Shown in pieces: positions 24,002-34,896 of a stretch of 64,000 nucleotides of DNA; positions within the stretch are counted from its first letter, which is position 1, and each line of letters begins with the position of its first letter. The position numbers were made by a program, and so were the translations under genes. This DNA is from Thermoproteota archaeon. GTDB taxonomy: Archaea; Thermoproteota; Thermoprotei; Gearchaeales; Gearchaeaceae. The stretch covers positions 192,001 through 256,000 of the forward strand of contig JAVVGF010000001.1 of NCBI GenBank assembly GCA_032249235.1, written 5' to 3'. The notes below the pieces were generated by a model that ran no database searches, had not been told where the DNA came from, and worked only from the letters and a program-made list of their open reading frames with translations.

Positions 24002-24715
24002 ATGAATAAAAAATTTTTAGCCATTTTACTAGCTTTAATAATCATTAGCTTACAGCCAAATTTCGTAAGTGCTGAGAAGCAACAGGGAAAGCTAACGGCT
24101 AATTTTATGGAAAGCCGCAGTTTTGCTATAGGAACGATATCTTTGGGTATTAACTATGAAATAAATTACAATGTTGATTATAAAGCAGAAGTAGCAAAAG
24201 GTGATACTAACGATATCAATTTATCTCTCTATGGAGGTGTAGCTAATTTAACTTTTGGTTTTCAAAATCAAACATTAAACTATAATAGAACAATGAAGCT
24301 AGGCGAACAGGTTGCATTCAACGTTGGTCCTTTAAGATTGAATATTCTTCTAAAGGCTGAAGCACCAATAAATATATTAGGTAGCGCTAGTAGTCAATCT
24401 TCAATGGTGACTTTTGAAAATGAAGGACAGCAAACAATTAAAGTTAAAGTTAGCGATTCTGCTAATGTTGGGGATCTCATTAAAATCAGCTTACCGTTTT
24501 CTCTCAGAATCTTCATGGCTATTACTGCTCCGATAAGCATTTCTTTCTTTGAGTTAGGTAAGGTAAATCTGTTTCCAGAATTATCATTACAATTCAAAGT
24601 TACAAGTAGTTGGTTTGAGAGCAACTTTTATCTTATATTAGCTCTTGTAATTGCAGTGATTATCATGGCAGCTTTAGCTATTTTATTTATCATGAGAAGA
24701 AGAAAGAAGACATGA
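24002..24715 (+). CDS. Secreted beta-rich protein with C-terminal TM anchor
   Basis: Signal peptide (VSA), C-terminal hydrophobic helix + RRRKK. Confidence 0.7.
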   Translation: MNKKFLAILLALIIISLQPNFVSAEKQQGKLTANFMESRSFAIGTISLGINYEINYNVDYKAEVAKGDTNDINLSLYGGVANLTFGFQNQTLNYNRTMKLGEQVAFNVGPLRLNILLKAEAPINILGSASSQSSMVTFENEGQQTIKVKVSDSANVGDLIKISLPFSLRIFMAITAPISISFFELGKVNLFPELSLQFKVTSSWFESNFYLILALVIAVIIMAALAILFIMRRRKKT

Positions 24716-24966
24716 AAGCTATCTTATTTGGCATTTTGTTTTGTTTCGTGGGCTCTATAATGTTTGTCTATGCGGTTTACAATATCTTATTAACAATTTA
24801 CAATTACCATGTTATAATTCCTACATCTATTACAGAATTCATAAACTATTATTTTGGTGAAACTTTTGTAAGTATTAACGATATTTTATTTCTAGGTGTT
24901 TTTGGAGCAATAGGTGCCATACTATTTTACTTCGGTCTATTTATTGTCTATCTCTTTAAAAAATAA
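24712..24966 (+). CDS. Small two-TM membrane protein
   Basis: Two hydrophobic segments; ATGA overlap with upstream gene. Confidence 0.65.
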   Translation: MKAILFGILFCFVGSIMFVYAVYNILLTIYNYHVIIPTSITEFINYYFGETFVSINDILFLGVFGAIGAILFYFGLFIVYLFKK

Positions 24967-24983
24967 AAGAATGAAATTTTAGT

Positions 24984-25262
24984 ATGACTATGGAAGAGAT
25001 TAATAGAAGCAGAAAATTTGGATATGTATGTATTATTCTTGGTCTAGGCTTAATAATTCTTTCTGCAGGATTAGCCTTAAGAGAATACTTCTTTTATAGA
25101 GCAACCATAGGCGAGGTCTCGAGCGTCCCTTCCATATTAGGTTTCCTTGCTACCGAATTGCTTGTTTTAATAGTGAAAGTTGCATTTTTAGGTATTGTAA
25201 TTGCAGGTAGCTCTATATTACTAAGATATGGATTAGAGCTAATAAAGGAAGTTAAAAAATGA
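24984..25262 (+). CDS. Small two-TM membrane protein
   Basis: Two hydrophobic segments; tight operon spacing. Confidence 0.65.
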   Translation: MTMEEINRSRKFGYVCIILGLGLIILSAGLALREYFFYRATIGEVSSVPSILGFLATELLVLIVKVAFLGIVIAGSSILLRYGLELIKEVKK

Positions 25263-25645
25263 CGCTTAGACATGAAGTATTGATTTCCATTTTATCTGTT
25301 TTCATAATATTTTTATTATTCAGTCCTCTTACTCTTTTTTTACAAGACTTAGCGAAAGGGCACATATATTTTAAGTTTCAACATAAAGGTAATGAGATAT
25401 TATTAATCCTTGTTAATGAAGGTAACAGTTATCTTAGCGATATAACTTATAATGCAACTGCTCAAGATATATACAATAATTTATACACAAAGACTGGCAA
25501 AATTGATTCTTTCAAAAAAGGTGATAATATAACTATTAAAATACCTTTAAAAATACCAAATGCGATAATAATAAAAGTTGATTTGAAAATATCTGCAAAA
25601 ATTAATGGACTTTATAGATTTGATTTTGAAGTAAAAAGAGAATGA
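25259..25645 (+). CDS. Membrane-anchored single beta-sandwich (LEA_2/Ig-like) protein
   Basis: N-terminal TM then LVNEGNSYLSDI...KIDSFKKGDNITIKIP; ATGA overlaps on both sides. Confidence 0.55.
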   Translation: MTLRHEVLISILSVFIIFLLFSPLTLFLQDLAKGHIYFKFQHKGNEILLILVNEGNSYLSDITYNATAQDIYNNLYTKTGKIDSFKKGDNITIKIPLKIPNAIIIKVDLKISAKINGLYRFDFEVKRE

Positions 25646-26127
25646 GCAAGGCCACTGACATAATTAAGGCTTATCTTATTATAACCCTTATTGAAGGCAT
25701 ATTGAGAACTATAATGATATACATTGTTCTTATAATCTTACCTGCTGTTATTCTCGTACGGCCTGTAGTTATAACTAAAACTTTCATAGACATAATGATT
25801 ATTTGCATCGCAGCTTCAGCATTTAGAATTTACGTTATTTCTCCTATACTTATAACACTTGCTTATTTTTACAGTTTCTTAGTTTCTGCAAATACATTGG
25901 ATTTCGGATACTTAAGTTATAATTGGGAAGTATATACTTTTCAAATATCCTTCTTTCTAGACATGTCGCCTTTAGTTTTTGCTCTATTTGCCACGATAGT
26001 CATTCCTATGAGTATTTCTGCATTTTATTCTTATTATATTACACAAGCAACAGGAAGTATAAGAAGGCCTCCAGTACCTCTTACAGGGGCTACTATAAGG
26101 GATATAATTCTTGAAATATTACGTTAA
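25642..26127 (+). CDS. Integral membrane protein (about 4 TM)
   Basis: Mostly hydrophobic; ATGA overlap. Confidence 0.65.
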   Translation: MSKATDIIKAYLIITLIEGILRTIMIYIVLIILPAVILVRPVVITKTFIDIMIICIAASAFRIYVISPILITLAYFYSFLVSANTLDFGYLSYNWEVYTFQISFFLDMSPLVFALFATIVIPMSISAFYSYYITQATGSIRRPPVPLTGATIRDIILEILR

Positions 26128-26167: not shown

Positions 26168-27754
26168 GTGAGCTGGGAGATTATTCTCTCAGCTGATCGC
26201 GGATCATTTACAGATTATAATGGCTCTAGCGTGCTGGGGTATGTTGCATGTATGCCTTCTCGCCTTGTACCTAGATTTTTTATGGATAAGTTCTTTACGC
26301 CTCCTATTAAAAGCGATGAAAGTGGAAGAGCTCTTTATGCTCCCTATGCTTTGAGGAAAATCGAAGCTACACTTGTCAATAAAGGTTTTAAAGAAGTAGC
26401 TGTCGTTTCTCCTGAAAGATTAAAAGATGTAGTAAGTAAAAAGACAAAAATTTTGGGATTGAGTGTTCATGATCCGTTAGGTATTGATCCTGTAAGCACG
26501 AAGTTATGCATGATATTTGGAGGAGGACCTAGCTGGACTGCAGTATTTTTTGAAGAAGTTGGTAACCTTGTTAATGAATTGAAAAAGAAATATAACTTCA
26601 AAGTTATAGTTGGAGGGCCTGCTGCTTGGGAATTAATAAAAGAAAGACCTAATTGGATTGATGTATTATTCATTGGAGAAGCTGAACACTCTTTGCCAGA
26701 AGTAGTCGAAAACCTATTAAATGGTAAAGAAGCACCTAAAATAGTATATGGGAAGGATGCTAAAATAGATGAAATACCTCCTATAATCAATCCTGCAAGG
26801 CTTGGAGAAGTACAAATAACAAGAGGTTGTCCTAGAGGATGTGCATTTTGTAGCATAACACCTGAAACTTTCAGATCAATTCCTTTAGAAATTATAAAAA
26901 AAGAAGTAGAAATTAATTTGAAGGGAGGTTGGAATAGAGTTGAATTCATAACAGACGATCTAATGCTCTATGGTTCTAACAAGCTTAGAGTTAACCACGA
27001 TGCAATAACAAAGCTGTATAGCGAAGTAATGAAAATGAAAGTCGATGGTATTTGGTTCCCACATATTTCAGCACCTCCTGTGAAAGAAAGTCCTAGAACT
27101 ATTAAAGCAATCTCTGAAACAGCTCATTATAGCTTCGATAGGGCAGATGCTCCAGTTGTAGGTCTTGAAACAGGAAGTGAAAGAATATTTGTTAAGTACA
27201 TGCGTGCTAAATCTTTTCCCTACGAGCCAAGAGAATGGAGAGATGTCATCATAGATGCTACTTCAATAATGAACGATAATTATATATTTCCTTGTTATAC
27301 GATGACAATAGGATATTTTGATGAAACAGAGGAAGATGTAGAGTATAGCATTAGATTAGTCCAAGACATTATAGATCATCAATTCATTGCTTGGATATTT
27401 CCCTTGCCTGTAATACCGATGGCAACGAGTAGAATAAATAAAAATCCATTTCCTACTTTAAAGAGAATGCCTAAAAATTATTGGGATCTTTTATATATTT
27501 CTTGGTCTTACAATTTAAAAATTACAAGGAAATTAATACCAACCTTAACAGGAGGTATTAGAAATAAGATCATAAATAAGATAACAAATTTAATGATAGA
27601 CAAGATCTTTAATAATATCGAATGGATATTTTATCAGTTAAAAGAGACTAAGGGTCTCAGTTCTCTTAATTATAGTAGCTTAAACCTTAATAACATAATA
27701 GGAATATTAAGGTCGATTACTTGGTTATTTAAGCTAAGTTTTAAACCGTTATGA
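26168..27754 (+). CDS. grsB: Radical SAM enzyme with B12-binding-like N domain; GDGT ring synthase (GrsA/GrsB family, most like GrsB)
   Basis: CPRGCAFC motif, VIVGGP, APYALRKIEA, HDPLG; N-terminus WEIILSADRGSFTDY..SSVLGYVACMP recalled as typical of Sulfolobales Grs proteins (not search-verified). Confidence 0.65.
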   Translation: MSWEIILSADRGSFTDYNGSSVLGYVACMPSRLVPRFFMDKFFTPPIKSDESGRALYAPYALRKIEATLVNKGFKEVAVVSPERLKDVVSKKTKILGLSVHDPLGIDPVSTKLCMIFGGGPSWTAVFFEEVGNLVNELKKKYNFKVIVGGPAAWELIKERPNWIDVLFIGEAEHSLPEVVENLLNGKEAPKIVYGKDAKIDEIPPIINPARLGEVQITRGCPRGCAFCSITPETFRSIPLEIIKKEVEINLKGGWNRVEFITDDLMLYGSNKLRVNHDAITKLYSEVMKMKVDGIWFPHISAPPVKESPRTIKAISETAHYSFDRADAPVVGLETGSERIFVKYMRAKSFPYEPREWRDVIIDATSIMNDNYIFPCYTMTIGYFDETEEDVEYSIRLVQDIIDHQFIAWIFPLPVIPMATSRINKNPFPTLKRMPKNYWDLLYISWSYNLKITRKLIPTLTGGIRNKIINKITNLMIDKIFNNIEWIFYQLKETKGLSSLNYSSLNLNNIIGILRSITWLFKLSFKPL

Positions 27755-27832
27755 TATAAATGAATTTATATTCCGATCATTTAATAATAAAATATTAGCA
27801 TAATGTTTTAGTAAAAATAATTCTAAAAAGAT

Positions 27833-28609
27833 CTAATTTAAAAAAGGAATTCTTTTTAGGTAATTTATAATTAATCCTTCCGTCTCTTCAATGTTTATCG
27901 GTTGATCAAACTTGATCTTCCAATCTAATACAAGATTAGAAAATAAATCTTTCTCGATTGTTAAACTTGCTTCGTTTCCCTCATCGATAAAAGAGATAAC
28001 GTTCCTAAGCAATTTTTGCAAAGCAGGGTTGAAATCAAAAATGCTGAGCTTCATTTTAATACAATTCAATTCAATATAACCGTTATTTAAAATACACTCA
28101 TCGAATATTTCATCATATCTGTCGAAAGAAAATAATATTGCTCTTATGTTCATTTCATAGATTTTGTTATCAGCATTTTTTCTTAAAATAACTTTGGCAA
28201 CATCTGAATTGTTCCCGGTGACAGATAAAAACACTTCTTTTTCTCCTACATTACTGACATTTATTTTTAAGTTTTCAATATCCTTAAGTCTTCTATAACT
28301 TTGAAGCGTTATTTCATCAATAACATTAATAAAATAGCTTACTTCTAAATGCTTCTTCAATATTGCTATTGAATTTTTTGATTCTGTTCCTTCAGTTAAA
28401 ATTTTTCCTTCATAAGCTTCGATTTTTTCTCTTATATAACTCCAATCAACATCCTCAAAAAAATCGCAAACAATTACACAATAATAACCTTTTCTATTTT
28501 TCTTGTGGATTATTTTAGAAAGCAATATAGCTTTGGGTTTTTCTTCATAATAGAATGAAAAAGCATTTTCTCTTTTAAGAAACTTTGCGATAACGAAATT
28601 ATAGACCAT
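27833..28609 (-). CDS. Hypothetical protein, divergent from cstA operon
   Basis: 258-aa ORF with ATG start; no recognised motif. Confidence 0.6.
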   Translation of the reverse strand: MVYNFVIAKFLKRENAFSFYYEEKPKAILLSKIIHKKNRKGYYCVIVCDFFEDVDWSYIREKIEAYEGKILTEGTESKNSIAILKKHLEVSYFINVIDEITLQSYRRLKDIENLKINVSNVGEKEVFLSVTGNNSDVAKVILRKNADNKIYEMNIRAILFSFDRYDEIFDECILNNGYIELNCIKMKLSIFDFNPALQKLLRNVISFIDEGNEASLTIEKDLFSNLVLDWKIKFDQPINIEETEGLIINYLKRIPFLN

Positions 28610-28819
28610 GTATTTTTATAAGCTGACACAAATATAGGAGTAATGCAAATAGAGAAGCTATCGTAGAATAATTTAAGGATCGGTTGATTGAGAGAAAGTC
28701 TTATATATTAAGTGATTTTAAAAGGAGAGTTTATATCATAAATAATGTTAAATTTATTTAAATTAAGGAGATAGAAAAGTTATAAAAGGATACGCTAATG
28801 CTCTAATTTTATTTTTCAT

Positions 28820-28863
28820 AATGTTTAAATATTAGTAAAATATCTTAGAAAATAGGTGAAATT
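28820..28863 (+). promoter_or_regulatory. Putative TATA box and GGTGA ribosome-binding site of cstA operon
   Basis: TTTAAATA near 28824 and AGGTGA 4 nt before the ATG at 28864. Confidence 0.45.
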
Positions 28864-30624
28864 ATGGTGGATTTTTTAAGCACACCTGCACCTTATATAG
28901 CATTAGGACTTGTAATATACCTAATAGCATATCTTGTATATTCTAAATATATAGATAAAGGAGTATGGAACACAGATCCTAATAGACCAACTCCTGCAAA
29001 ATTATATACAGACGGTGTTGAATATTTCCCAGTAAGCAAATATGTGCTCTATGGATACCAATTTAAGAGCGTCGCAGCATTAGGACCAATAGTAGGCCCG
29101 ATAGTCGCAGTATCCTTCTATGGCTGGCTACCAGCACTAATATGGTTGATAGTAGGTAACTTTTTCATAGGCTGGGTTCAAGATTATAGCGCAATGATGA
29201 TGTCGGTAAGAAATGATGGAAGATCGATGGGACCTATTACATACAACTTGATGGGTGAAAGAGTTCGAAAAATATTACTTGTGTACATTATGATTTACTT
29301 AATTATAATAACTGCAGTATTTGCTTGGGTTATCGTAGATATAATGAATAGGATCGTAGGAACATTTATACCTATCATATTCATTCTCTTCATGGGTGCA
29401 TTATTTGGACAATTAGTATTTAGAATGAAAATCGATATTCTAATAGCAACTATAATTGCTATAGCAGTAGTCTTTCTAGGAATAGTTCTCGTTGGCGTAT
29501 TTCCTCAAATACAAGTTCCACCTGTTAATTTCCTAGATCCTGGACTTGGCAAAACTACTACTTGGCCAGGTAGTTGGACTGTATTATTCTGGCTTTTCAT
29601 ACTAGCTATAATTTATTACATCGCTGCGATTACACCTATGCCAAGATTCCTTCTACCCACAATATTCGTAGGCTTCTTGCCAGCAATCATTGCTCTTATA
29701 TTGGTTATAATAGCTGCTTTATTTACTCCTTTAACTGGAATTACAATAAGCCAACCTGCTGTTAAGAATTTGTGGATTACTGATCCAAATCAATTCCAAA
29801 CAGGTCCTTTATGGCCAATTTTATTCGTAACAATTGCATGCGGTGCAATATCTGGCTGGCATAGTCTAGTATCAAGCGGCTTAACATCAAAGCAATTAGA
29901 ATTCGAGACTGATGCTAGACCTGTTGGTGGAGGAGCGATGATAACTGAAGGAATTGTAGGCTTATCTTCTGTTGCATCTGTAATAATTCTCGGTACTTTT
30001 GCTGCGACTGCAGTTACATATGCTCAAGGAGCAGGAAAGCTTACTAGTTCACTAACAGGTATTGGTTTATAAGGAATGACTTTATTCTATTCTGTTTTCG
30101 TAGTAGTGATGGGAATGATAACTTCAATGTTGTTTGTAAGAGTATGGAGGAATGTTTCGGCAGAATTATTTGAGAAAAGTATTCTAGGAAATAAGCATGT
30201 AGCTACAATTGTGATGTTGTTAATAATGATATTCCTAGCATTTACAGGAAGCTGGACTAACTTGTGGATATACTTTGGAGGCACTAATCAATTACTTGCA
30301 GGTTTAGCATTGCTCCTTGTTGCTGTATATCTAGCAAGCGTTAAAAGACCGACAATCTATGTTTTCATACCTGGCATCTTCATGGCTATAACAACTGTTG
30401 CAGCATTAATATGGGAAACTTATGTTTATTCCTATTTCTTGATAAATAATAAAGCGTTAGGACCACAAGCTAATGTTGCAAAAGTATTTGGCCAAGGGGT
30501 TGTTCAAGTTTCGAATGGTTTTTCAGCTATTTTAGGTGCCGTTCTTGCTGTATTAGGAGCAATAATGACATACTACTTAATAAGAGGATATATAAAATAC
30601 AGAAAAGAAGCAGTTAAAACATAA
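28864..30624 (+). pseudogene. cstA: Carbon starvation protein A (CstA) family transporter interrupted by one in-frame TAA (30070-30072)
   Basis: TPA...DGVEY.P, F.SVAALGPIVGP, GWLPA..W...G, WP.LF.TIACGAISGWHSL, LW.YFGGTNQLLAGLALL; track ORFs 28864-30072 and 30076-30624 share one frame (586 aa joined). Confidence 0.8.
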
Positions 30625-30675
30625 TATAAATTATATTTTTTTATAGTTTGGAATTTATTTTTTATGTGAGTTATC

Positions 30676-30945
30676 ATGCCAAAGGAGAAAAAAGATAGCC
30701 CTTTTAAAGCGTTGAAGGATACGCTTATGGGATTTATGATACATAGCCAAGTTACTTCCATGCTGAAAATGAAAACATATACGGAATATTTATTCATGAT
30801 AATGACGATGGGAGATATGCTTGGAATGCCATTGTTGCCTCCGTATTACTCATTAAGATTATTGCCTTACATGGTACCAAACATTAAGTCTTGGAAATTA
30901 AGAATGCTAAGAGATAGAGATGTTACAGATATAGTTGTAGGATGA
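30676..30945 (+). CDS. Small CstA/ArsA-associated protein (cory-CC-star-like), copy 1
   Basis: FMIMTMGDMLGMP...YYSLRLLPY; lies between cstA and ArsA-family gene; ATGA overlap. Confidence 0.65.
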   Translation: MPKEKKDSPFKALKDTLMGFMIHSQVTSMLKMKTYTEYLFMIMTMGDMLGMPLLPPYYSLRLLPYMVPNIKSWKLRMLRDRDVTDIVVG

Positions 30946-31961
30946 AAATAGGTATAAAATATCTTTTTGAAAAGAAACCTTCAATAAAAGTAGTTATATT
31001 TGCAGGAAAAGGAGGATTAGGTAAAACTACATGCAGTGCAGCTTTATCTTATCAAATCGCATTCAATTTGAAGAAAAAAGTTCTCTGCTTCTCAACCGAT
31101 CCTCAAGCTTCATTAAGTGATATTTTTGAAAGAGATTTGTTTGGTAAAGGAGAAATATCTTTGGCTGAAAATTTATTTGTTCTTGAAATAGATGCTGATA
31201 AAAGGATTAAGGATTACGTTGAAGAAACGAGAAAGAAAATAAAAGAAATGTACAAAATTGATGAAATACCTAAAGAAGTTGAGGATTATATTGAATCTGC
31301 AGCTGCAGAACCTGCGATGTATGAATCAGCAGTATATGATGCTATGCTAGAAGTTGTCACACAAGCTAAATATGATTATTACATATTTGATATGCCTCCT
31401 TTTGGTCATGGAATTAGGATGGTCGCGATGGCTGATCTATTGAGCAAATGGGTTGATAAGATAACAGAAGCTAGGAGACAAGCATTTGAATATGAGGCAG
31501 CGGCTGCAGCAATGAAAAGACAAAAAATTACAGAAAGAGAAGACATGATGTTAAAGGAGCTTGAAGACATAAGAAATAGAATTGTCAGTTTTAGAAATTT
31601 AGTTATTGATCCAAATGGGACAGCTTTCATTATGGTATTGATTCCAGAGAAAATGGCTATTCTTGATACAGAAAGAGCAATAAAAATGTTTGAGAATCTT
31701 GATCTGCGTGTTGGAGGTATAGTAGTTAATCAAGTCTATCCTCCTTGGATCATGGATGACCCTAAAGCTTCTGAATACTTGAAAAGAAAAGTAGCTTCCC
31801 AAAAGCCCTTGTTAAAAGAAATTGCTGACAAATTTGGAGATATGATAGTTGGCTTAATTCCAATGTATAATAAAGAACCAAAAGGTTTAGAAATGTTGAG
31901 CAAAGTAGCACAAGAACTTTGGGAATCAAGTTTTACGATTGAAAATCTAATAGGAAAATGA
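30942..31961 (+). CDS. ArsA/Get3(TRC40) family ATPase, copy 1
   Basis: GKGGLGKT P-loop, STDPQAS, LEIDA, DMPPFGH, PEKMAILDTER, VVNQV. Confidence 0.9.
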   Translation: MKIGIKYLFEKKPSIKVVIFAGKGGLGKTTCSAALSYQIAFNLKKKVLCFSTDPQASLSDIFERDLFGKGEISLAENLFVLEIDADKRIKDYVEETRKKIKEMYKIDEIPKEVEDYIESAAAEPAMYESAVYDAMLEVVTQAKYDYYIFDMPPFGHGIRMVAMADLLSKWVDKITEARRQAFEYEAAAAAMKRQKITEREDMMLKELEDIRNRIVSFRNLVIDPNGTAFIMVLIPEKMAILDTERAIKMFENLDLRVGGIVVNQVYPPWIMDDPKASEYLKRKVASQKPLLKEIADKFGDMIVGLIPMYNKEPKGLEMLSKVAQELWESSFTIENLIGK

Positions 31962-32935
31962 GCATAGAAGAGAAGCTAAAATCTAAGTATATATTTGTTG
32001 GCGGAAAAGGCGGTGTTGGCAAAACAGTAATAGCTTCTGCTATTGCTTTAAGATTTGCTGAACAAAACAAGAAAACTTTGATAGCTAGCTTTAATCCAGT
32101 TCATTCTTTATCAACAGTTTTCCAGCAAGATTTGAGCGGAGGAAAAATAAAGCAGATTAATGGAATAAATAACTTATATGCTCTTGAAGTAGAGATCGAT
32201 GATGCAGTTGAGAAATACAAAGAGCAAATATCAAATCTTTTAAGAGAATTTTTGAAATGGGCAGAAATACCTGTTGATCCTAAACCTTTCATAGATATAG
32301 CAACGACGAATCCAGCTTTCCAAGAAGCTGCTAGCTTTGATAAAATGATGGATATCATATTACTTGAAGGAGAAAACTATGACAAAATAGTTTTTGATAC
32401 TGCAGCTGTTGCAAATGCAATTAGATTGATAGGATTATCAAAAATATATGGCTTGTGGTTATCAAGAGTTATAAAATCGAGAGAAGAAACTCTTTCTTTA
32501 AGAAAGCAATTAAGCTGGAGGAAGGATAAAGTAGAAGAAGAAATAAAAAAAGATCCTGTATTGCTTAATCTACTAAATCTATATAACAAATACAACAAAG
32601 TAAGAACAATTATAACTGATGCCTCTAAGACAAGTTTTGTATTCGTTACAATCCCTACTGTATTGTCAATATCTGTAGTTAAAAGATTTATGGAAATGGT
32701 GAAATCTTATGAAATTCCTTCAAGCGGAGTCATAGTTAATATGCTAATCCCTGAAGAGGAAGTAAATAAAGATCAAACAGGCTTTTTAAAATCGAAGCTA
32801 GATGAACAAAAAATTAATTTAGAGTTAATTAGCAAATACTTTAAGGATCAAATTTTAGGTTATATCCATCTGCGACCAAACGATGTTATAGGCTTGAATG
32901 ATTTGAGGGAAGTAGTTAATGAACTCGAGAAATAA
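31958..32935 (+). CDS. ArsA/Get3(TRC40) family ATPase, copy 2 (catalytic Asp replaced by Asn)
   Basis: GGKGGVGKT, SFNPVHS (vs STDPAHS), DTAAVAN (vs DTAPTGH), IVNML. Confidence 0.88.
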   Translation: MSIEEKLKSKYIFVGGKGGVGKTVIASAIALRFAEQNKKTLIASFNPVHSLSTVFQQDLSGGKIKQINGINNLYALEVEIDDAVEKYKEQISNLLREFLKWAEIPVDPKPFIDIATTNPAFQEAASFDKMMDIILLEGENYDKIVFDTAAVANAIRLIGLSKIYGLWLSRVIKSREETLSLRKQLSWRKDKVEEEIKKDPVLLNLLNLYNKYNKVRTIITDASKTSFVFVTIPTVLSISVVKRFMEMVKSYEIPSSGVIVNMLIPEEEVNKDQTGFLKSKLDEQKINLELISKYFKDQILGYIHLRPNDVIGLNDLREVVNELEK

Positions 32936-33209
32936 ATTTAAGAAAAAGATTAAGTCTTTAATACCTGACACACAAGCAATAAAAGATTTCCTTTTCGGAT
33001 TAACTACCTTTGAAATGTATAGAGAAACAATAAAAATTGCAAAAGCATATGAAAATTTAATTTATATGTTAATGATAGGTGAATTTTTAGGTATACCTTT
33101 CTTCTCAAATTATTACACATTAAGATTATTGCCATATTTATTAAATGGATTATATGATTTTCGTAAGAATGTAGTAAGAGAAAGAGATATATTTGAAGAA
33201 ATTGCATAA
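32919..33209 (+). CDS. Small CstA/ArsA-associated protein (cory-CC-star-like), copy 2
   Basis: YMLMIGEFLGIP...YYTLRLLPY...RERD, paralogous to 30676-30945. Confidence 0.65.
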   Translation: MNSRNKFKKKIKSLIPDTQAIKDFLFGLTTFEMYRETIKIAKAYENLIYMLMIGEFLGIPFFSNYYTLRLLPYLLNGLYDFRKNVVRERDIFEEIA

Positions 33210-33210
33210 T

Positions 33211-33720
33211 ATGACTTACATTGAAGAACCTCTTAAAGTAGCATTAGCAGTAGGTAATGCATTGATAGGAGTCTATAATTTCATCGTCATTTCAATACCC
33301 CAAAGTTGGAGAATAATAAACATGCCCATGTCATCAGACGTGTTCTCTTCGATTTCACAAGGTAATGTAAAGTGGGTAAGAGATGGAGAAGTCGAGCATT
33401 TCATCAACGCTCCACTAGGGAGGATTGCATTGAGAATAAAAATATGGCCTGGTATGAAATCTGTCGATAAAATAAAGGATTACAGAAAACAATTCAGTGA
33501 AGGTAATGTAAAAATAGGAGGTCATGATGGTATTTTCTATAAGTTTAAAAGAAAATATTTGCTGATAGGGGAAAGAAACGTATTAGCTATTTTAGCTTAT
33601 TGTCCTATTACTCAAAGAACTTTGCAAATAGAATTTATAGGAGGAGAGGAATGGGTTGATGAGGTGCTGAATACATTGAACGAAAGTCAATGCCATATAA
33701 ATGAAGGAAGTAAAAATTGA
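33211..33720 (+). CDS. Hypothetical protein of cstA operon
   Basis: ATG 1 nt after upstream stop; YCPITQRT and QCH Cys/His motifs. Confidence 0.65.
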   Translation: MTYIEEPLKVALAVGNALIGVYNFIVISIPQSWRIINMPMSSDVFSSISQGNVKWVRDGEVEHFINAPLGRIALRIKIWPGMKSVDKIKDYRKQFSEGNVKIGGHDGIFYKFKRKYLLIGERNVLAILAYCPITQRTLQIEFIGGEEWVDEVLNTLNESQCHINEGSKN

Positions 33721-34087
33721 AATAATAACATTAGATCCGATAATGTTAGGTCATTGTGAACATTGCGAGATAGTTTGGCAGACCTTTAGATTTGATCATA
33801 AAAAGATTCAACTTCAAGAATATCCTATTGAGATACTCGAGTTATCGAGCAGAATTACTCAATTCATCAATATAATTACAAAAGAAATACCTGCAAAAGT
33901 TTTCATCATAGAAGCTATGACATTGAGAGGTTTATTTAAAATGATAAGATATGGTAGCGGAAAGTTGCCCTTGATAATAGTGAATGGTAGAAAGATTTCT
34001 CAGGGGAAATTAGAAGATCCTTATGAATTAGCTGAGAAGACGCTTAAAATTATAAAAGATGCTGGAATCGTTGAAGCTAAGCTCTAA
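33701..34087 (+). CDS. Thioredoxin/glutaredoxin-like fold protein
   Basis: HCEHC CxxC near N-terminus; LPLIIVNG cis-Pro strand. Confidence 0.6.
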   Translation: MKEVKIEIITLDPIMLGHCEHCEIVWQTFRFDHKKIQLQEYPIEILELSSRITQFINIITKEIPAKVFIIEAMTLRGLFKMIRYGSGKLPLIIVNGRKISQGKLEDPYELAEKTLKIIKDAGIVEAKL

Positions 34088-34421
34088 TTAATTTCCAACC
34101 TTTTTCAATACAAATTTTTTCTATAAAATTAACGCATTCACGTAACAAAGCTTTTTCTCTGCCAAAAATATCCAATCTAGCTATGCCTGTTCTACCCCCA
34201 ACAACGGTTATAATTAAATTGCATTTATTCTCGCTAAGAAAATCTACAATAATTGAGCATGCCATGTCCGAATTTTGCAAAAAAGAATATTTTTCAAATA
34301 TCAAAACAAAAACATCACCTTTTTCGCTAACGTAATTAAAAGAATAAGGAAATTCTTTTCTAAATATATCGATAATACTTTTTATTTCAAATCCTTCAAT
34401 TATAAAGTTTAAGGTTCTCAC
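34077..34421 (-). CDS. Hypothetical protein (DUF6054-like)
   Basis: FEKYS...S.I...GG..G..FG.E pattern. Confidence 0.5.
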   Translation of the reverse strand: MRTLNFIIEGFEIKSIIDIFRKEFPYSFNYVSEKGDVFVLIFEKYSFLQNSDMACSIIVDFLSENKCNLIITVVGGRTGIARLDIFGREKALLRECVNFIEKICIEKGWKLIRA

Positions 34422-34452
34422 TATAATATAATAATAAAAAATTTAAAAAATT

Positions 34453-34896
34453 CTATACTGGCTGATTAATTTTAATCGCTTTCGTTGGACAAGCAATCTC
34501 ACATGCTAAACAGAATATGCAGTTGCTCTCTCTTATAGGAAAGGCTTTATCAGTTCTATATTTATCCCATAATTCTTTATCTTCAGGCTTATTAGGATCG
34601 ATAATCCTATCGTTACCTGTTCCTGCTTTTCCAGGATTCAAAAACCACTCAAAAACATTTACAGGACAAACATCCATGCATACGCCGTCTGCAATACAAG
34701 CTTCAAAATCTACCATGACAATAGTTCCATAAATACCTAATTGGGTTGGATATGGCTTTCCTTCTGCATCATATCTTTGAATGCCTCCTGCCCTTATTTT
34801 TATTCCCATGTATTCACCAGTAATTGGATACTCATCAGGTTTATTCAATACTTCAGGATCGATTGGTTTAGGCTTATAATCAACAGGTCTAGTCAT
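34453..34896 (-). CDS. zfx: Dicluster [3Fe-4S]/[4Fe-4S] ferredoxin, Zfx family (Thermoplasma-type long form)
   Basis: CIADGVCMDVCP and CIFCLACEIACP; N-terminal extension KPKPID...YP.TG...LGI.GT.V.VD. Confidence 0.85.
   Translation of the reverse strand: MTRPVDYKPKPIDPEVLNKPDEYPITGEYMGIKIRAGGIQRYDAEGKPYPTQLGIYGTIVMVDFEACIADGVCMDVCPVNVFEWFLNPGKAGTGNDRIIDPNKPEDKELWDKYRTDKAFPIRESNCIFCLACEIACPTKAIKINQPV

Follow-up and report, generated by a model that had tools for sequence, protein, structure and literature searches.

A CstA transporter gene cluster with a pair of Get3-like ATPases and a modelled CstX interface in a Thermoproteota archaeon

The window analysed here is a stretch of 64,000 nucleotides from a Thermoproteota archaeon (assembly GCA_032249235.1, contig JAVVGF010000001.1, positions 192,001 to 256,000). 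Positions 28864-34087 of its + strand, 5224 bases in all, hold a cstA gene together with two genes for ATPases of the Get3/ArsA type and four genes for smaller proteins. CstA-family carriers are widespread and those of Escherichia coli import pyruvate, and the role of the ATPases attached to such carriers has been open since 2010. The locus raises the question what a pair of ATPases does beside a secondary carrier. Here we report the conservation of the cluster, the predicted properties of the two ATPases, a model of their complex with one of the small proteins, and the state of the cstA gene in this strain.

Judged by its sequence, the locus belongs to the cstA-cstX-arsA-homologue module described by Castillo and Saier in 2010. 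It encodes CstA (PF02554), two CstX proteins of ~90 amino acids (aa; 89 and 96 aa) and single-domain ArsA homologues, with no ArsB, Acr3 or ArsD, and a CstX relative adjoins CstA in 75 of the 80 loci surveyed below. The CstA passages of the 2010 paper (PMC2963123) report cstA next to an ArsA homologue in 26 cases, 24 of them with cstX, and a further gene, cstY, in five archaea; Pyrobaculum aerophilum has two adjacent ArsA homologues and two CstX paralogues, Thermococcus kodakarensis is listed as a carrier of the module, and CstA, CstX and the ArsA homologues are described as co-evolving. The same passages propose that the ArsA homologue energises CstA and that CstX is the linker, so that the mechanistic idea itself was already put forward in 2010. 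No later bench work on the module was found in the literature beyond that paper, subscription journals lying outside the coverage.

All seven genes listed in an earlier note on this DNA were recovered as open reading frames (ORFs) on the + strand; the exception to that description is cstA (28864-30624), which is not a single ORF and carries an in-frame TAA codon at 30070-30072. The genes overlap or abut from 30676 onward, as had been described, with start and stop codons overlapping from cstX1 through P8 by 4, 4, 17, 17 and 20 nucleotides (nt). The likelier start of P7 is the ATG at 33211, where the nearest relative and the Atlas record begin, and with this start the 17-nt overlap between cstX2 and P7 becomes a gap of 1 nt.

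Conservation of the neighbourhood was followed in 80 loci, kept from a scan of one genome per species in which 599 of 610 candidate stretches encode a CstX relative; the ORFs of the 80 loci were scored with the window's own proteins. CstA is present in 75 loci, ATPase 1 (ATP1) in 78 and ATPase 2 (ATP2) in 77, and every core gene that is missing falls at a contig end. The system read from one genome is thus upheld in archaea and bacteria, with all four core genes (CstA, CstX, ATP1, ATP2) together in 72 of the 80. A second CstX occurs in 46 loci, P7 in 38 and P8 in 21 (phmmer), all seven kinds are found in 13, and a divergent P8-like ORF, judged by eye, is present in seven further loci. The loci belong to Thermoproteota, Caldarchaeales, Bathyarchaeia, Thermoplasmata, Chloroflexota, Bacillota (Symbiobacteriaceae), Thermodesulfobacteriota, Gemmatimonadota and other lineages. 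Gene order differs between them, for example CstX1-P8-CstX2-ATP1-ATP2-P7 in Anaerolineae. The arrangement is far beyond chance, and because the order has been shuffled between lineages a functional link is argued.

Of 301 genomes sampled from the phylum, 39, from 15 of 123 genera, gave a CstX match, so that the module counts as a patchy accessory. Most of these genomes have two CstX matches ~2.2 kb apart. A Get3-family match is missing from 217 of the 301 genomes; all 39 CstX genomes have one, mostly exactly two. The parts are not intact everywhere, ATP1 being in two or three pieces in G099 and G250 and a stop lying inside the second CstX in G195 and G043.

Six genomes (G118, G177, G253, G198, G229 and G202) contain just one CstX match, of greater divergence (E 6.5e-6 to 7e-10), and in all six a Get3-family match adjoins it by coordinates. 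The Get3-family match is the only one in five of them, and G253 has a second, weak one ~300 kb away. These genomes may perhaps represent a one-ATPase form of the module. Haloferax volcanii, used as a control genome, matches the cory-CC-star/CstX model below its cut-off and also matches TIGR00345, and this genetically tractable archaeon may carry the module.

ATP1 (30942-31961, 339 aa) and ATP2 (31958-32935, 325 aa) had been taken beforehand for dual Get3/ArsA-type ATPases, and their scores agree: both match PF02374 (236.7 and 208.4 bits), both exceed the 135-bit cut-off of TIGR00345, the TRC40/GET3/ArsA family (226.4 and 212.2 bits), and they share 27% identity with each other (E=4e-35). The nearest solved chains of both are archaeal Get3, namely 3ug6 (E=2.4e-54 for ATP1 and 3.4e-46 for ATP2) and 3zq6, and both align over full length to Get3 of M. 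jannaschii. No further gene of the Get3/ArsA family was found in the 91%-complete assembly. Two narrower assignments were rejected: as BagA/BagB (NF053622, NF053621) the pair scores at best 47.4 against 400 and 33.9 against 521 bits, and as the ArsA pump ATPase (TIGR04291) 88.6 and 119.6 against 650 bits, being moreover encoded by separate single-domain genes.

The active sites of the two proteins differ. In alignments of 66 ATP1 and 66 ATP2 orthologues the deviant Walker A motif GKGGxGKT shows no variation in either protein. In ATP1 the P-loop, D53 of the motif DPQAS and switch II P153-x-G155-H156 are the same in 66 of 66 sequences. ATP2 likewise keeps the P-loop and has an equally invariant N46 (66 of 66) within the motif NPVH, and DTAAVANA stands where Get3 has DTAPTGHT. 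In HMMER alignments N46 falls on the Asp of the TDPAH motif of ArsA1 and of M. jannaschii Get3; its link to the numbering of yeast Get3 was made by motif. In the yeast protein D57 is catalytic, and the variant D57N, which binds but does not hydrolyse ATP, maintains the closed state (PMC12506534). Because an Asn replaces the catalytic Asp and switch II is degenerate, ATP2 should hold ATP without splitting it. ATP1 is thus the predicted catalytic subunit and ATP2 the predicted ATP-binding, non-hydrolysing one, and the pair is probably a motor with one working site.

The two ATPases are ancient paralogues. In a tree of 132 sequences ATP1 and ATP2 are reciprocally monophyletic (66 + 66 rows, support 100) and their inner topologies mirror each other; the duplication is therefore older than the spread of the module, and both copies evolved together. 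No Cys is invariant among the 66 ATP1 or the 66 ATP2 sequences, so that both the ArsA metalloid site and the CxxC clasp of Get3 are absent. The pair departs from a Get3 targeting factor in the strict sense, the catalytic Asp not being present in every subunit (N46 of ATP2, 66/66) and the CxxC zinc clasp missing from both; some archaeal Get3 homologues are likewise without this clasp (PMC6593721).

The cluster is not an arsenic pump. The statement of the earlier note that arsB, acr3 and arsD are missing extends to the whole assembly, in which, at 91% completeness, no ArsB or Acr3 was found and ArsD has no Pfam match at E<=1; with no arsenic partner genes found in the genome, the ATPases do not appear as partners of an ArsB pump. 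For arsR, no such family was matched by the 12 ORFs at 26168-34896, a genome-wide arsR search not having been made.

The small proteins CstX1 (30676-30945, 89 aa), which is the CstX of Castillo and Saier, and CstX2 (32919-33209, 96 aa) are paralogues with 32% identity (E=5e-16), in line with the duplicated partner proteins seen earlier. CstX1 has 1054 homologues at E<=1e-3 in a large protein collection, and all 120 homologues listed bear the precomputed label PF25952, cited here as a label only. Across 66 orthologues from both domains of life the mean column identity is 67% and 18 residues are invariant, among them G46, D47, G50, P52, P55, P56, Y57, Y58, L60, L63, P64, P68, W73, D82 and D85. 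On the Kyte-Doolittle scale the best 19-residue window reaches a median of 1.49 over 66 orthologues (range 1.10-1.68), which is borderline for a membrane helix. Against the cory-CC-star model NF041419 (cut-off 80 bits) CstX1 scores 36.8 and CstX2 32.1 bits. The two proteins terminate in ...VVG and ...EIA, not in the C-terminal Cys-Cys that we take the name of that family to imply, and are distant relatives only. An assignment to DUF466 (YbdD/YjiX) was also rejected, as all 20 members scanned lacked such a Pfam match (E<=10). Natural fusions of a CstX2-like with a CstX1-like protein, 180-213 aa long (P0121, P0122 and P0123), fit a predicted CstX pair matched to the ATPase pair.

A complex of ATP1, ATP2 and CstX1 was modelled from our own alignments of 63-66 rows per chain, in three runs and with three controls. 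An interface was predicted, with ipSAE scores of 0.60, 0.62 and 0.62 against 0.02 for the best of the three controls, and the runs share at least 78% of their contacts. In the model residues 24-67 of CstX1 contact residues 89-133 and 156-214 of ATP1 and residues 91-124 and 156-212 of ATP2. The interface takes in 11 of the 18 invariant CstX1 residues and also the ATP1 invariants I100, Y116, L207 and I210; the CstX1 invariants outside it (G19, H23, G46, P68, W73, D82 and D85) include those of the C-terminal W..RERD.TD motif. The ATPase segments in contact sit between switch I and switch II and just past switch II. In Get3 helices 4-6 and 7-9 line the client groove (helices 4-9; PMC6593721), and the contact segments were matched to these helices by sequence order, not by superposition. 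The model thus sets the conserved core of CstX on the helical subdomains of ATP1 and ATP2 alike; it supports binding but is no proof of it.

Two accessory proteins follow. P7 (33193-33720, 175 aa), the Cys/His protein, has no Pfam or NCBIfam match, and a search of the PDB with the profile of its family was empty at E<=10. In an alignment of 37 sequences H111, C137, R142, C167 and H168 are invariant, and in most of the sequences Cys-His are the last two residues. The AlphaFold2 model has a predicted local distance difference test score (pLDDT) of 90.3 and a predicted template modelling score of 0.84 and is mostly beta. Thirteen Foldseek matches reached E<=1e-3, the best being PsbP 1v2b (E=1.1e-4, template modelling score 0.46-0.52). 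VIA-align gave Z-scores of 8.8-9.3 to BT_1490, SciW/EagT6, PsbP and Mog1 (114-136 residues, root mean square deviation 3.6-4.4), and an Atlas search agrees on the class. By its model P7 has a PsbP/Mog1-like fold, which is a fold class and not a sequence family, and its four ligand-like residues (His-Cys-Cys-His) may cluster. The N-terminus had been considered as a membrane helix (Kyte-Doolittle 1.92) and was rejected as such, the model having strands there with a pLDDT of 93-94.

P8 (33701-34087, 128 aa), the CxxC protein, had been called thioredoxin-like, and its AlphaFold2 model (pLDDT 85.2) is a thioredoxin fold with a strand at 4-10, a helix at 20-28 and C19-x-x-C22 at the helix start. The top listed Foldseek matches all belong to the thioredoxin superfamily, with E from 2.4e-3 to 2.7e-2 and none below 1e-3, and the ArsD chains 3mwh and 3kgk stand at ranks 5 and 15 of them. 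The family profile matches the MTH895-type thioredoxin 1nho (E=0.017), and 8 of 23 family members match Thioredoxin_3. Within the CxxC motif C19 is invariant and C22 is not; a redox role would be suggested at the level of the fold. ArsD itself (PF06953) was rejected for P8, with no match at E<=1 anywhere in the genome and a likeness of fold only.

Of the 80 loci, 39 (L009, L012, L017, L032 and 35 more) encode a further protein family of ~210 aa whose N-terminus includes a hydrophobic segment; it was not found in the window's genome. This is probably the family that Castillo and Saier named CstY. A likeness to CCDC47, a subunit of the PAT complex, was confirmed only weakly, with Pfam matches of E 0.014-0.03 in 3 of 8 members and no CCDC47 chain in a profile search of the PDB.

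We favour a stable CstX-ATPase clamp acting on CstA and give this reading a probability of roughly 45%. The CstA-family permease would work with an obligate, asymmetric Get3-like ATPase heterodimer, whose composite helical-subdomain surface would clamp the proline-rich hydrophobic core of the CstX proteins at the region that forms the client groove in Get3. The CstX invariants outside the interface would stay free and may dock on CstA. ATP1, as the single live site, would cycle, and ATP2, as the locked site, would keep the dimer together; the clamp would open and close as ATP is bound and hydrolysed at the live site, and this movement would drive or gate CstA, in analogy to the action of ArsA on the secondary carrier ArsB. 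P7 and P8 would be lineage-variable accessories that probably sense redox state or metal, or aid assembly. The earlier note had suggested that small adaptors couple a heterodimeric ATPase to CstA. The kept neighbourhood, the mirrored evolution of the ATPases and the modelled seat of CstX1 on both of them agree with this as far as adaptor and ATPases are concerned, while the contact between CstX and CstA, the coupling to transport, the roles of P7 and P8, and the mechanism itself, be it coupling, gating or biogenesis, are what we infer. None of the outcomes that the note named as refuting its proposal was seen: gene order is kept, the model predicts an interface, and arsenic partners were not found.

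Several points weigh against the clamp. No result bears on CstA itself, the complex model having covered the ATPases and CstX1. The pLDDT of the partner in that model is modest (62-64), and the ipSAE mark, which was reached by 116 of 157 solved complexes and by 2 of 215 mismatched pairs, is only roughly calibrated for this case, in which own alignments were used and three chains sent. The model may also lean on known structures, and part of its score may be memory, since solved complexes of Get3 with clients exist. Weak evidence comes from the longer CstX proteins: four of six such hits were examined and none of the four is fused to CstA or to an ATPase, three being CstX-CstX tandems and one having a long low-complexity N-terminus. 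The interrupted cstA of this assembly and the broken ATP1 or CstX2 of some relatives indicate that the module is dispensable. Finally, the nearest solved relatives of the ATPases are Get3 chaperones and not pump energisers, the fold class of P7 includes SciW and EagT6, chaperones that hold transmembrane helices, and 39 of the 80 loci carry the extra ~210-aa family; for these reasons a role in biogenesis is fitted at least as well.

The main rival is accordingly a targeting or assembly chaperone specific to CstA, in which the ATPase pair would deliver CstX or segments of CstA to the membrane, with P7 and, in other lineages, the ~210-aa membrane protein as co-chaperones. We place it on the unlikely side. 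It would explain the closeness of the ATPases to archaeal Get3 (3ug6, E=2.4e-54 and 3.4e-46), the modelled seat of CstX1 where Get3 holds its clients (groove helices 4-9; PMC6593721), the resemblance of P7 to SciW and EagT6 (Z 8.8-9.2), Eag chaperones whose structures were solved with transmembrane domains bound, and the ~210-aa family of 39 loci with its weak CCDC47 matches in 3 of 8 members. However, CstX is only borderline hydrophobic (median 1.49) and its proline-rich core contains Asp and Arg, unlike a tail anchor, while conservation as extreme as that of CstX (67% mean column identity) is to be expected of a fixed subunit more than of a client. A subunit permanently locked with ATP likewise agrees better with a stable clamp than with a release cycle, and translational coupling suggests equal stoichiometry; the ~210-aa family was not found in this genome, and its likeness to CCDC47 was unconfirmed by the profile search of the PDB.

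Two other mechanisms fare less well. A hand-over of the ArsD-ArsA-ArsB type, in which a metal, a metalloid or a thiol-reactive substrate would go from P8 and P7 to the ATPases and on through CstA, appears improbable. Like the ars system, the module does combine a secondary carrier with a two-site ATPase and a partner of thioredoxin fold, the ArsD chains 3mwh and 3kgk rank 5 and 15 among the fold matches of P8, P7 has its invariant His-Cys-Cys-His set and usual Cys-His end, and CstX is a distant relative of the cory-CC-star family; moreover, small proteins encoded beside E. coli cstA end in Cys-Cys and a Campylobacter relative ends in Cys-selenocysteine (10.1101/2022.07.06.499078). Yet neither ATPase has an invariant Cys and hence an ArsA metalloid site, the genome search gave no ArsB or Acr3 and no ArsD Pfam match (E<=1), the second Cys of P8 is not conserved, the CstX proteins here have no terminal Cys, and with 38 and 21 of 80 loci P7 and P8 are not core parts. 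It is still more improbable that the pair is the organism's plain Get3 for general targeting of tail-anchored proteins, standing beside cstA by descent with no functional link. ATP1 and ATP2 are indeed the only Get3/ArsA-family genes found in the 91%-complete assembly, and archaeal Get3 homologues bind tail-anchored proteins (PMC6593721); the link to cstA, however, is seen in 75 of 80 loci from archaea and bacteria, with the misses at contig ends, and because 217 of the 301 phylum genomes are without a Get3-family match, while all 39 CstX genomes have one, the pair is an accessory that travels with CstX and CstA and not a housekeeping factor.

A last alternative concerns this strain and not the mechanism, and it starts from cstA. 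The cut-off of the Pfam model PF02554 is 27 bits. The N-terminal piece of the gene (28864-30072, 402 codons) matches it with 301.9 bits at profile positions 6-362 of 560 and the C-terminal piece (30076-30624, 182 codons) with 44.1 bits at positions 459-560. The two lie in one frame, the TAA codon being followed by GGA and ATG, and the C-terminal piece aligns over full length with the intact CstA of seven relatives. In L003, the nearest species-level relative, CstA is one intact ORF of 564 aa with ACA at the position of the stop codon. The stretch is present almost letter for letter in several hot-spring metagenome runs, in which position 30070 is polymorphic: T in run X1, a possible source run, and C in runs X3 and X6. 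Over the 5224 bases a 28-kb contig of X3 matches the window except at this position, where its codon is CAA (Gln). Because X3 and X6 read CAA there, the TAA is a very recent nonsense allele and the ancestral codon was CAA (Gln). The assembly (1.43 Mb, 91% complete) holds one cstA.

With a stop codon in the transporter gene the system possibly does not work here, and the module may be inactive in this strain whatever its mechanism. The corresponding alternative, that the module is out of use, the stop in cstA being a loss of function and the other genes heading to decay, is tentative and falls short of even odds. It can point to the TAA at 30070-30072, to the T of the possible source run X1, where the contig has a mean word depth of 50.7, and to the broken parts in relatives (ATP1 in G099 and G250, the second CstX in G195 and G043). 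On the other hand, a single base of 5224 differs from the X3 contig and nothing else has decayed, an in-frame ATG lies 3 nt after the stop so that a two-piece CstA could still be made, and allele frequencies cannot be seen from contigs. In the RNA run X10 short contigs with 90-95% likeness cover 9 of 30 bins, which for the genes of this strain shows neither transcription nor its absence. One 534-nt contig of X10 joins the start of cstA (28867-28981) to the end of P8 (33874-34087) on opposite strands, with joints 28981/33933 and 33874/33932, and is probably an assembly chimera.

As to substrate, the CstA of this locus scores 162.1 bits against NF011590, the equivalog model of the pyruvate/proton symporter; this is far below the cut-off of 1188, and the substrate can therefore not be carried over from E. 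coli. No solved structure was matched by the CstA sequence at E<=0.01.

The locus adds another copy to a cluster known in print from comparative genomics only, with a fresh nonsense allele of cstA in this strain. If the pair does grip CstX and act on CstA, it would be the second case, after ArsA-ArsB, of an ATPase of this family acting on a secondary carrier, and it would offer a simple prokaryotic system for Get3 research, with a natural one-dead-site design and a defined partner. One step beyond, and unlikely in our estimate, the module would be a transporter-dedicated Get3 machine with one live and one ATP-locked site, whose client groove, instead of handing on membrane proteins, grips the dedicated, proline-rich small-protein pair, cyclically presented to CstA, thereby switching or powering the carrier. 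Such a machine would be a living intermediate between pump energisers of the ArsA type and chaperones of the Get3 type for transmembrane helices, and would suggest that binding of a hydrophobic partner peptide in the groove is older than tail-anchor targeting. With the module in genetically handled organisms, the question is directly testable.

The surroundings of the cluster were also inspected. On the + strand, 24002-26127 holds five small, mostly hydrophobic ORFs (237, 84, 92, 128 and 161 aa), with overlapping start and stop codons in four genes, and a 528-aa radical S-adenosylmethionine protein (PF04055, 44.1 bits) lies upstream of the cluster at 26168-27754. A 258-aa ORF at 27833-28609 on the - strand has no Pfam or NCBIfam match. 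Downstream, a convergent 114-aa ORF (34077-34421, - strand) overlaps the end of P8 by 11 nt; it matches DUF6054 weakly, with 25.1 bits against a cut-off of 27, and is kept in L003 only, one of the 80 loci.

Among known systems, pyruvate uptake by E. coli CstA depends on the small protein YbdD (PMC5847655). The CstA-YbdD and BtsT-YjiX (DUF466) pairs share with the present locus a CstA-family carrier and a small protein encoded just downstream. CstX differs in having neither a DUF466 match nor a terminal Cys-Cys, and no ArsA/Get3 ATPase is described in the accounts of those pairs consulted here.

The clusters of Castillo and Saier (Int J Microbiol 2010:187373; ArsA cluster 15, with P. aerophilum and Symbiobacterium thermophilum) have in common with this locus CstA, a CstX of ~90 aa, ArsA homologues of ~330 aa and the lack of ars genes, and the surveyed Thermoproteus and Symbiobacteriaceae loci share their layout. 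CstX is called a protein with a single transmembrane segment there, whereas its hydropathy here is borderline, and their CstY, of ~210 aa with one such segment, has its counterpart in the ~210-aa family, which was not found in the window's genome. The 2010 passages on CstA do not mention the Asp-to-Asn site, the Get3-like character of the ATPases, or a PsbP-like P7 and a thioredoxin-fold P8 as cst parts. The dead-site asymmetry, the modelled CstX grip and the folds of P7 and P8 go beyond those passages, all of them as computational results.

With Get3/TRC40 (3ug6, 3zq6) the ATPases share the TIGR00345 family, alignment over full length, the deviant Walker A motif and a partner modelled on the helical subdomains. 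They differ from it as a predicted obligate heterodimer of ancient paralogues, one of which has a natural equivalent of D57N, in the absence of the CxxC zinc clasp, and in being tied to a transporter gene and a dedicated small protein instead of many clients. Mycobacterial BagA and BagB are also encoded by two neighbouring Get3-like ATPase genes and are thought to act together; by score the pair described here is not of that family.

ArsA binds metalloids through a cysteine triad, and such conserved cysteines are missing from the present ATPases, which are moreover encoded by two separate genes and not fused into one protein of ~580 aa. The ArsA-ArsD-ArsB system nevertheless resembles the module in its two-site ATPase, whose halves are unequal, and in having both a thioredoxin-fold partner and a secondary carrier, and it is the precedent for an ATPase that turns a carrier into a pump.

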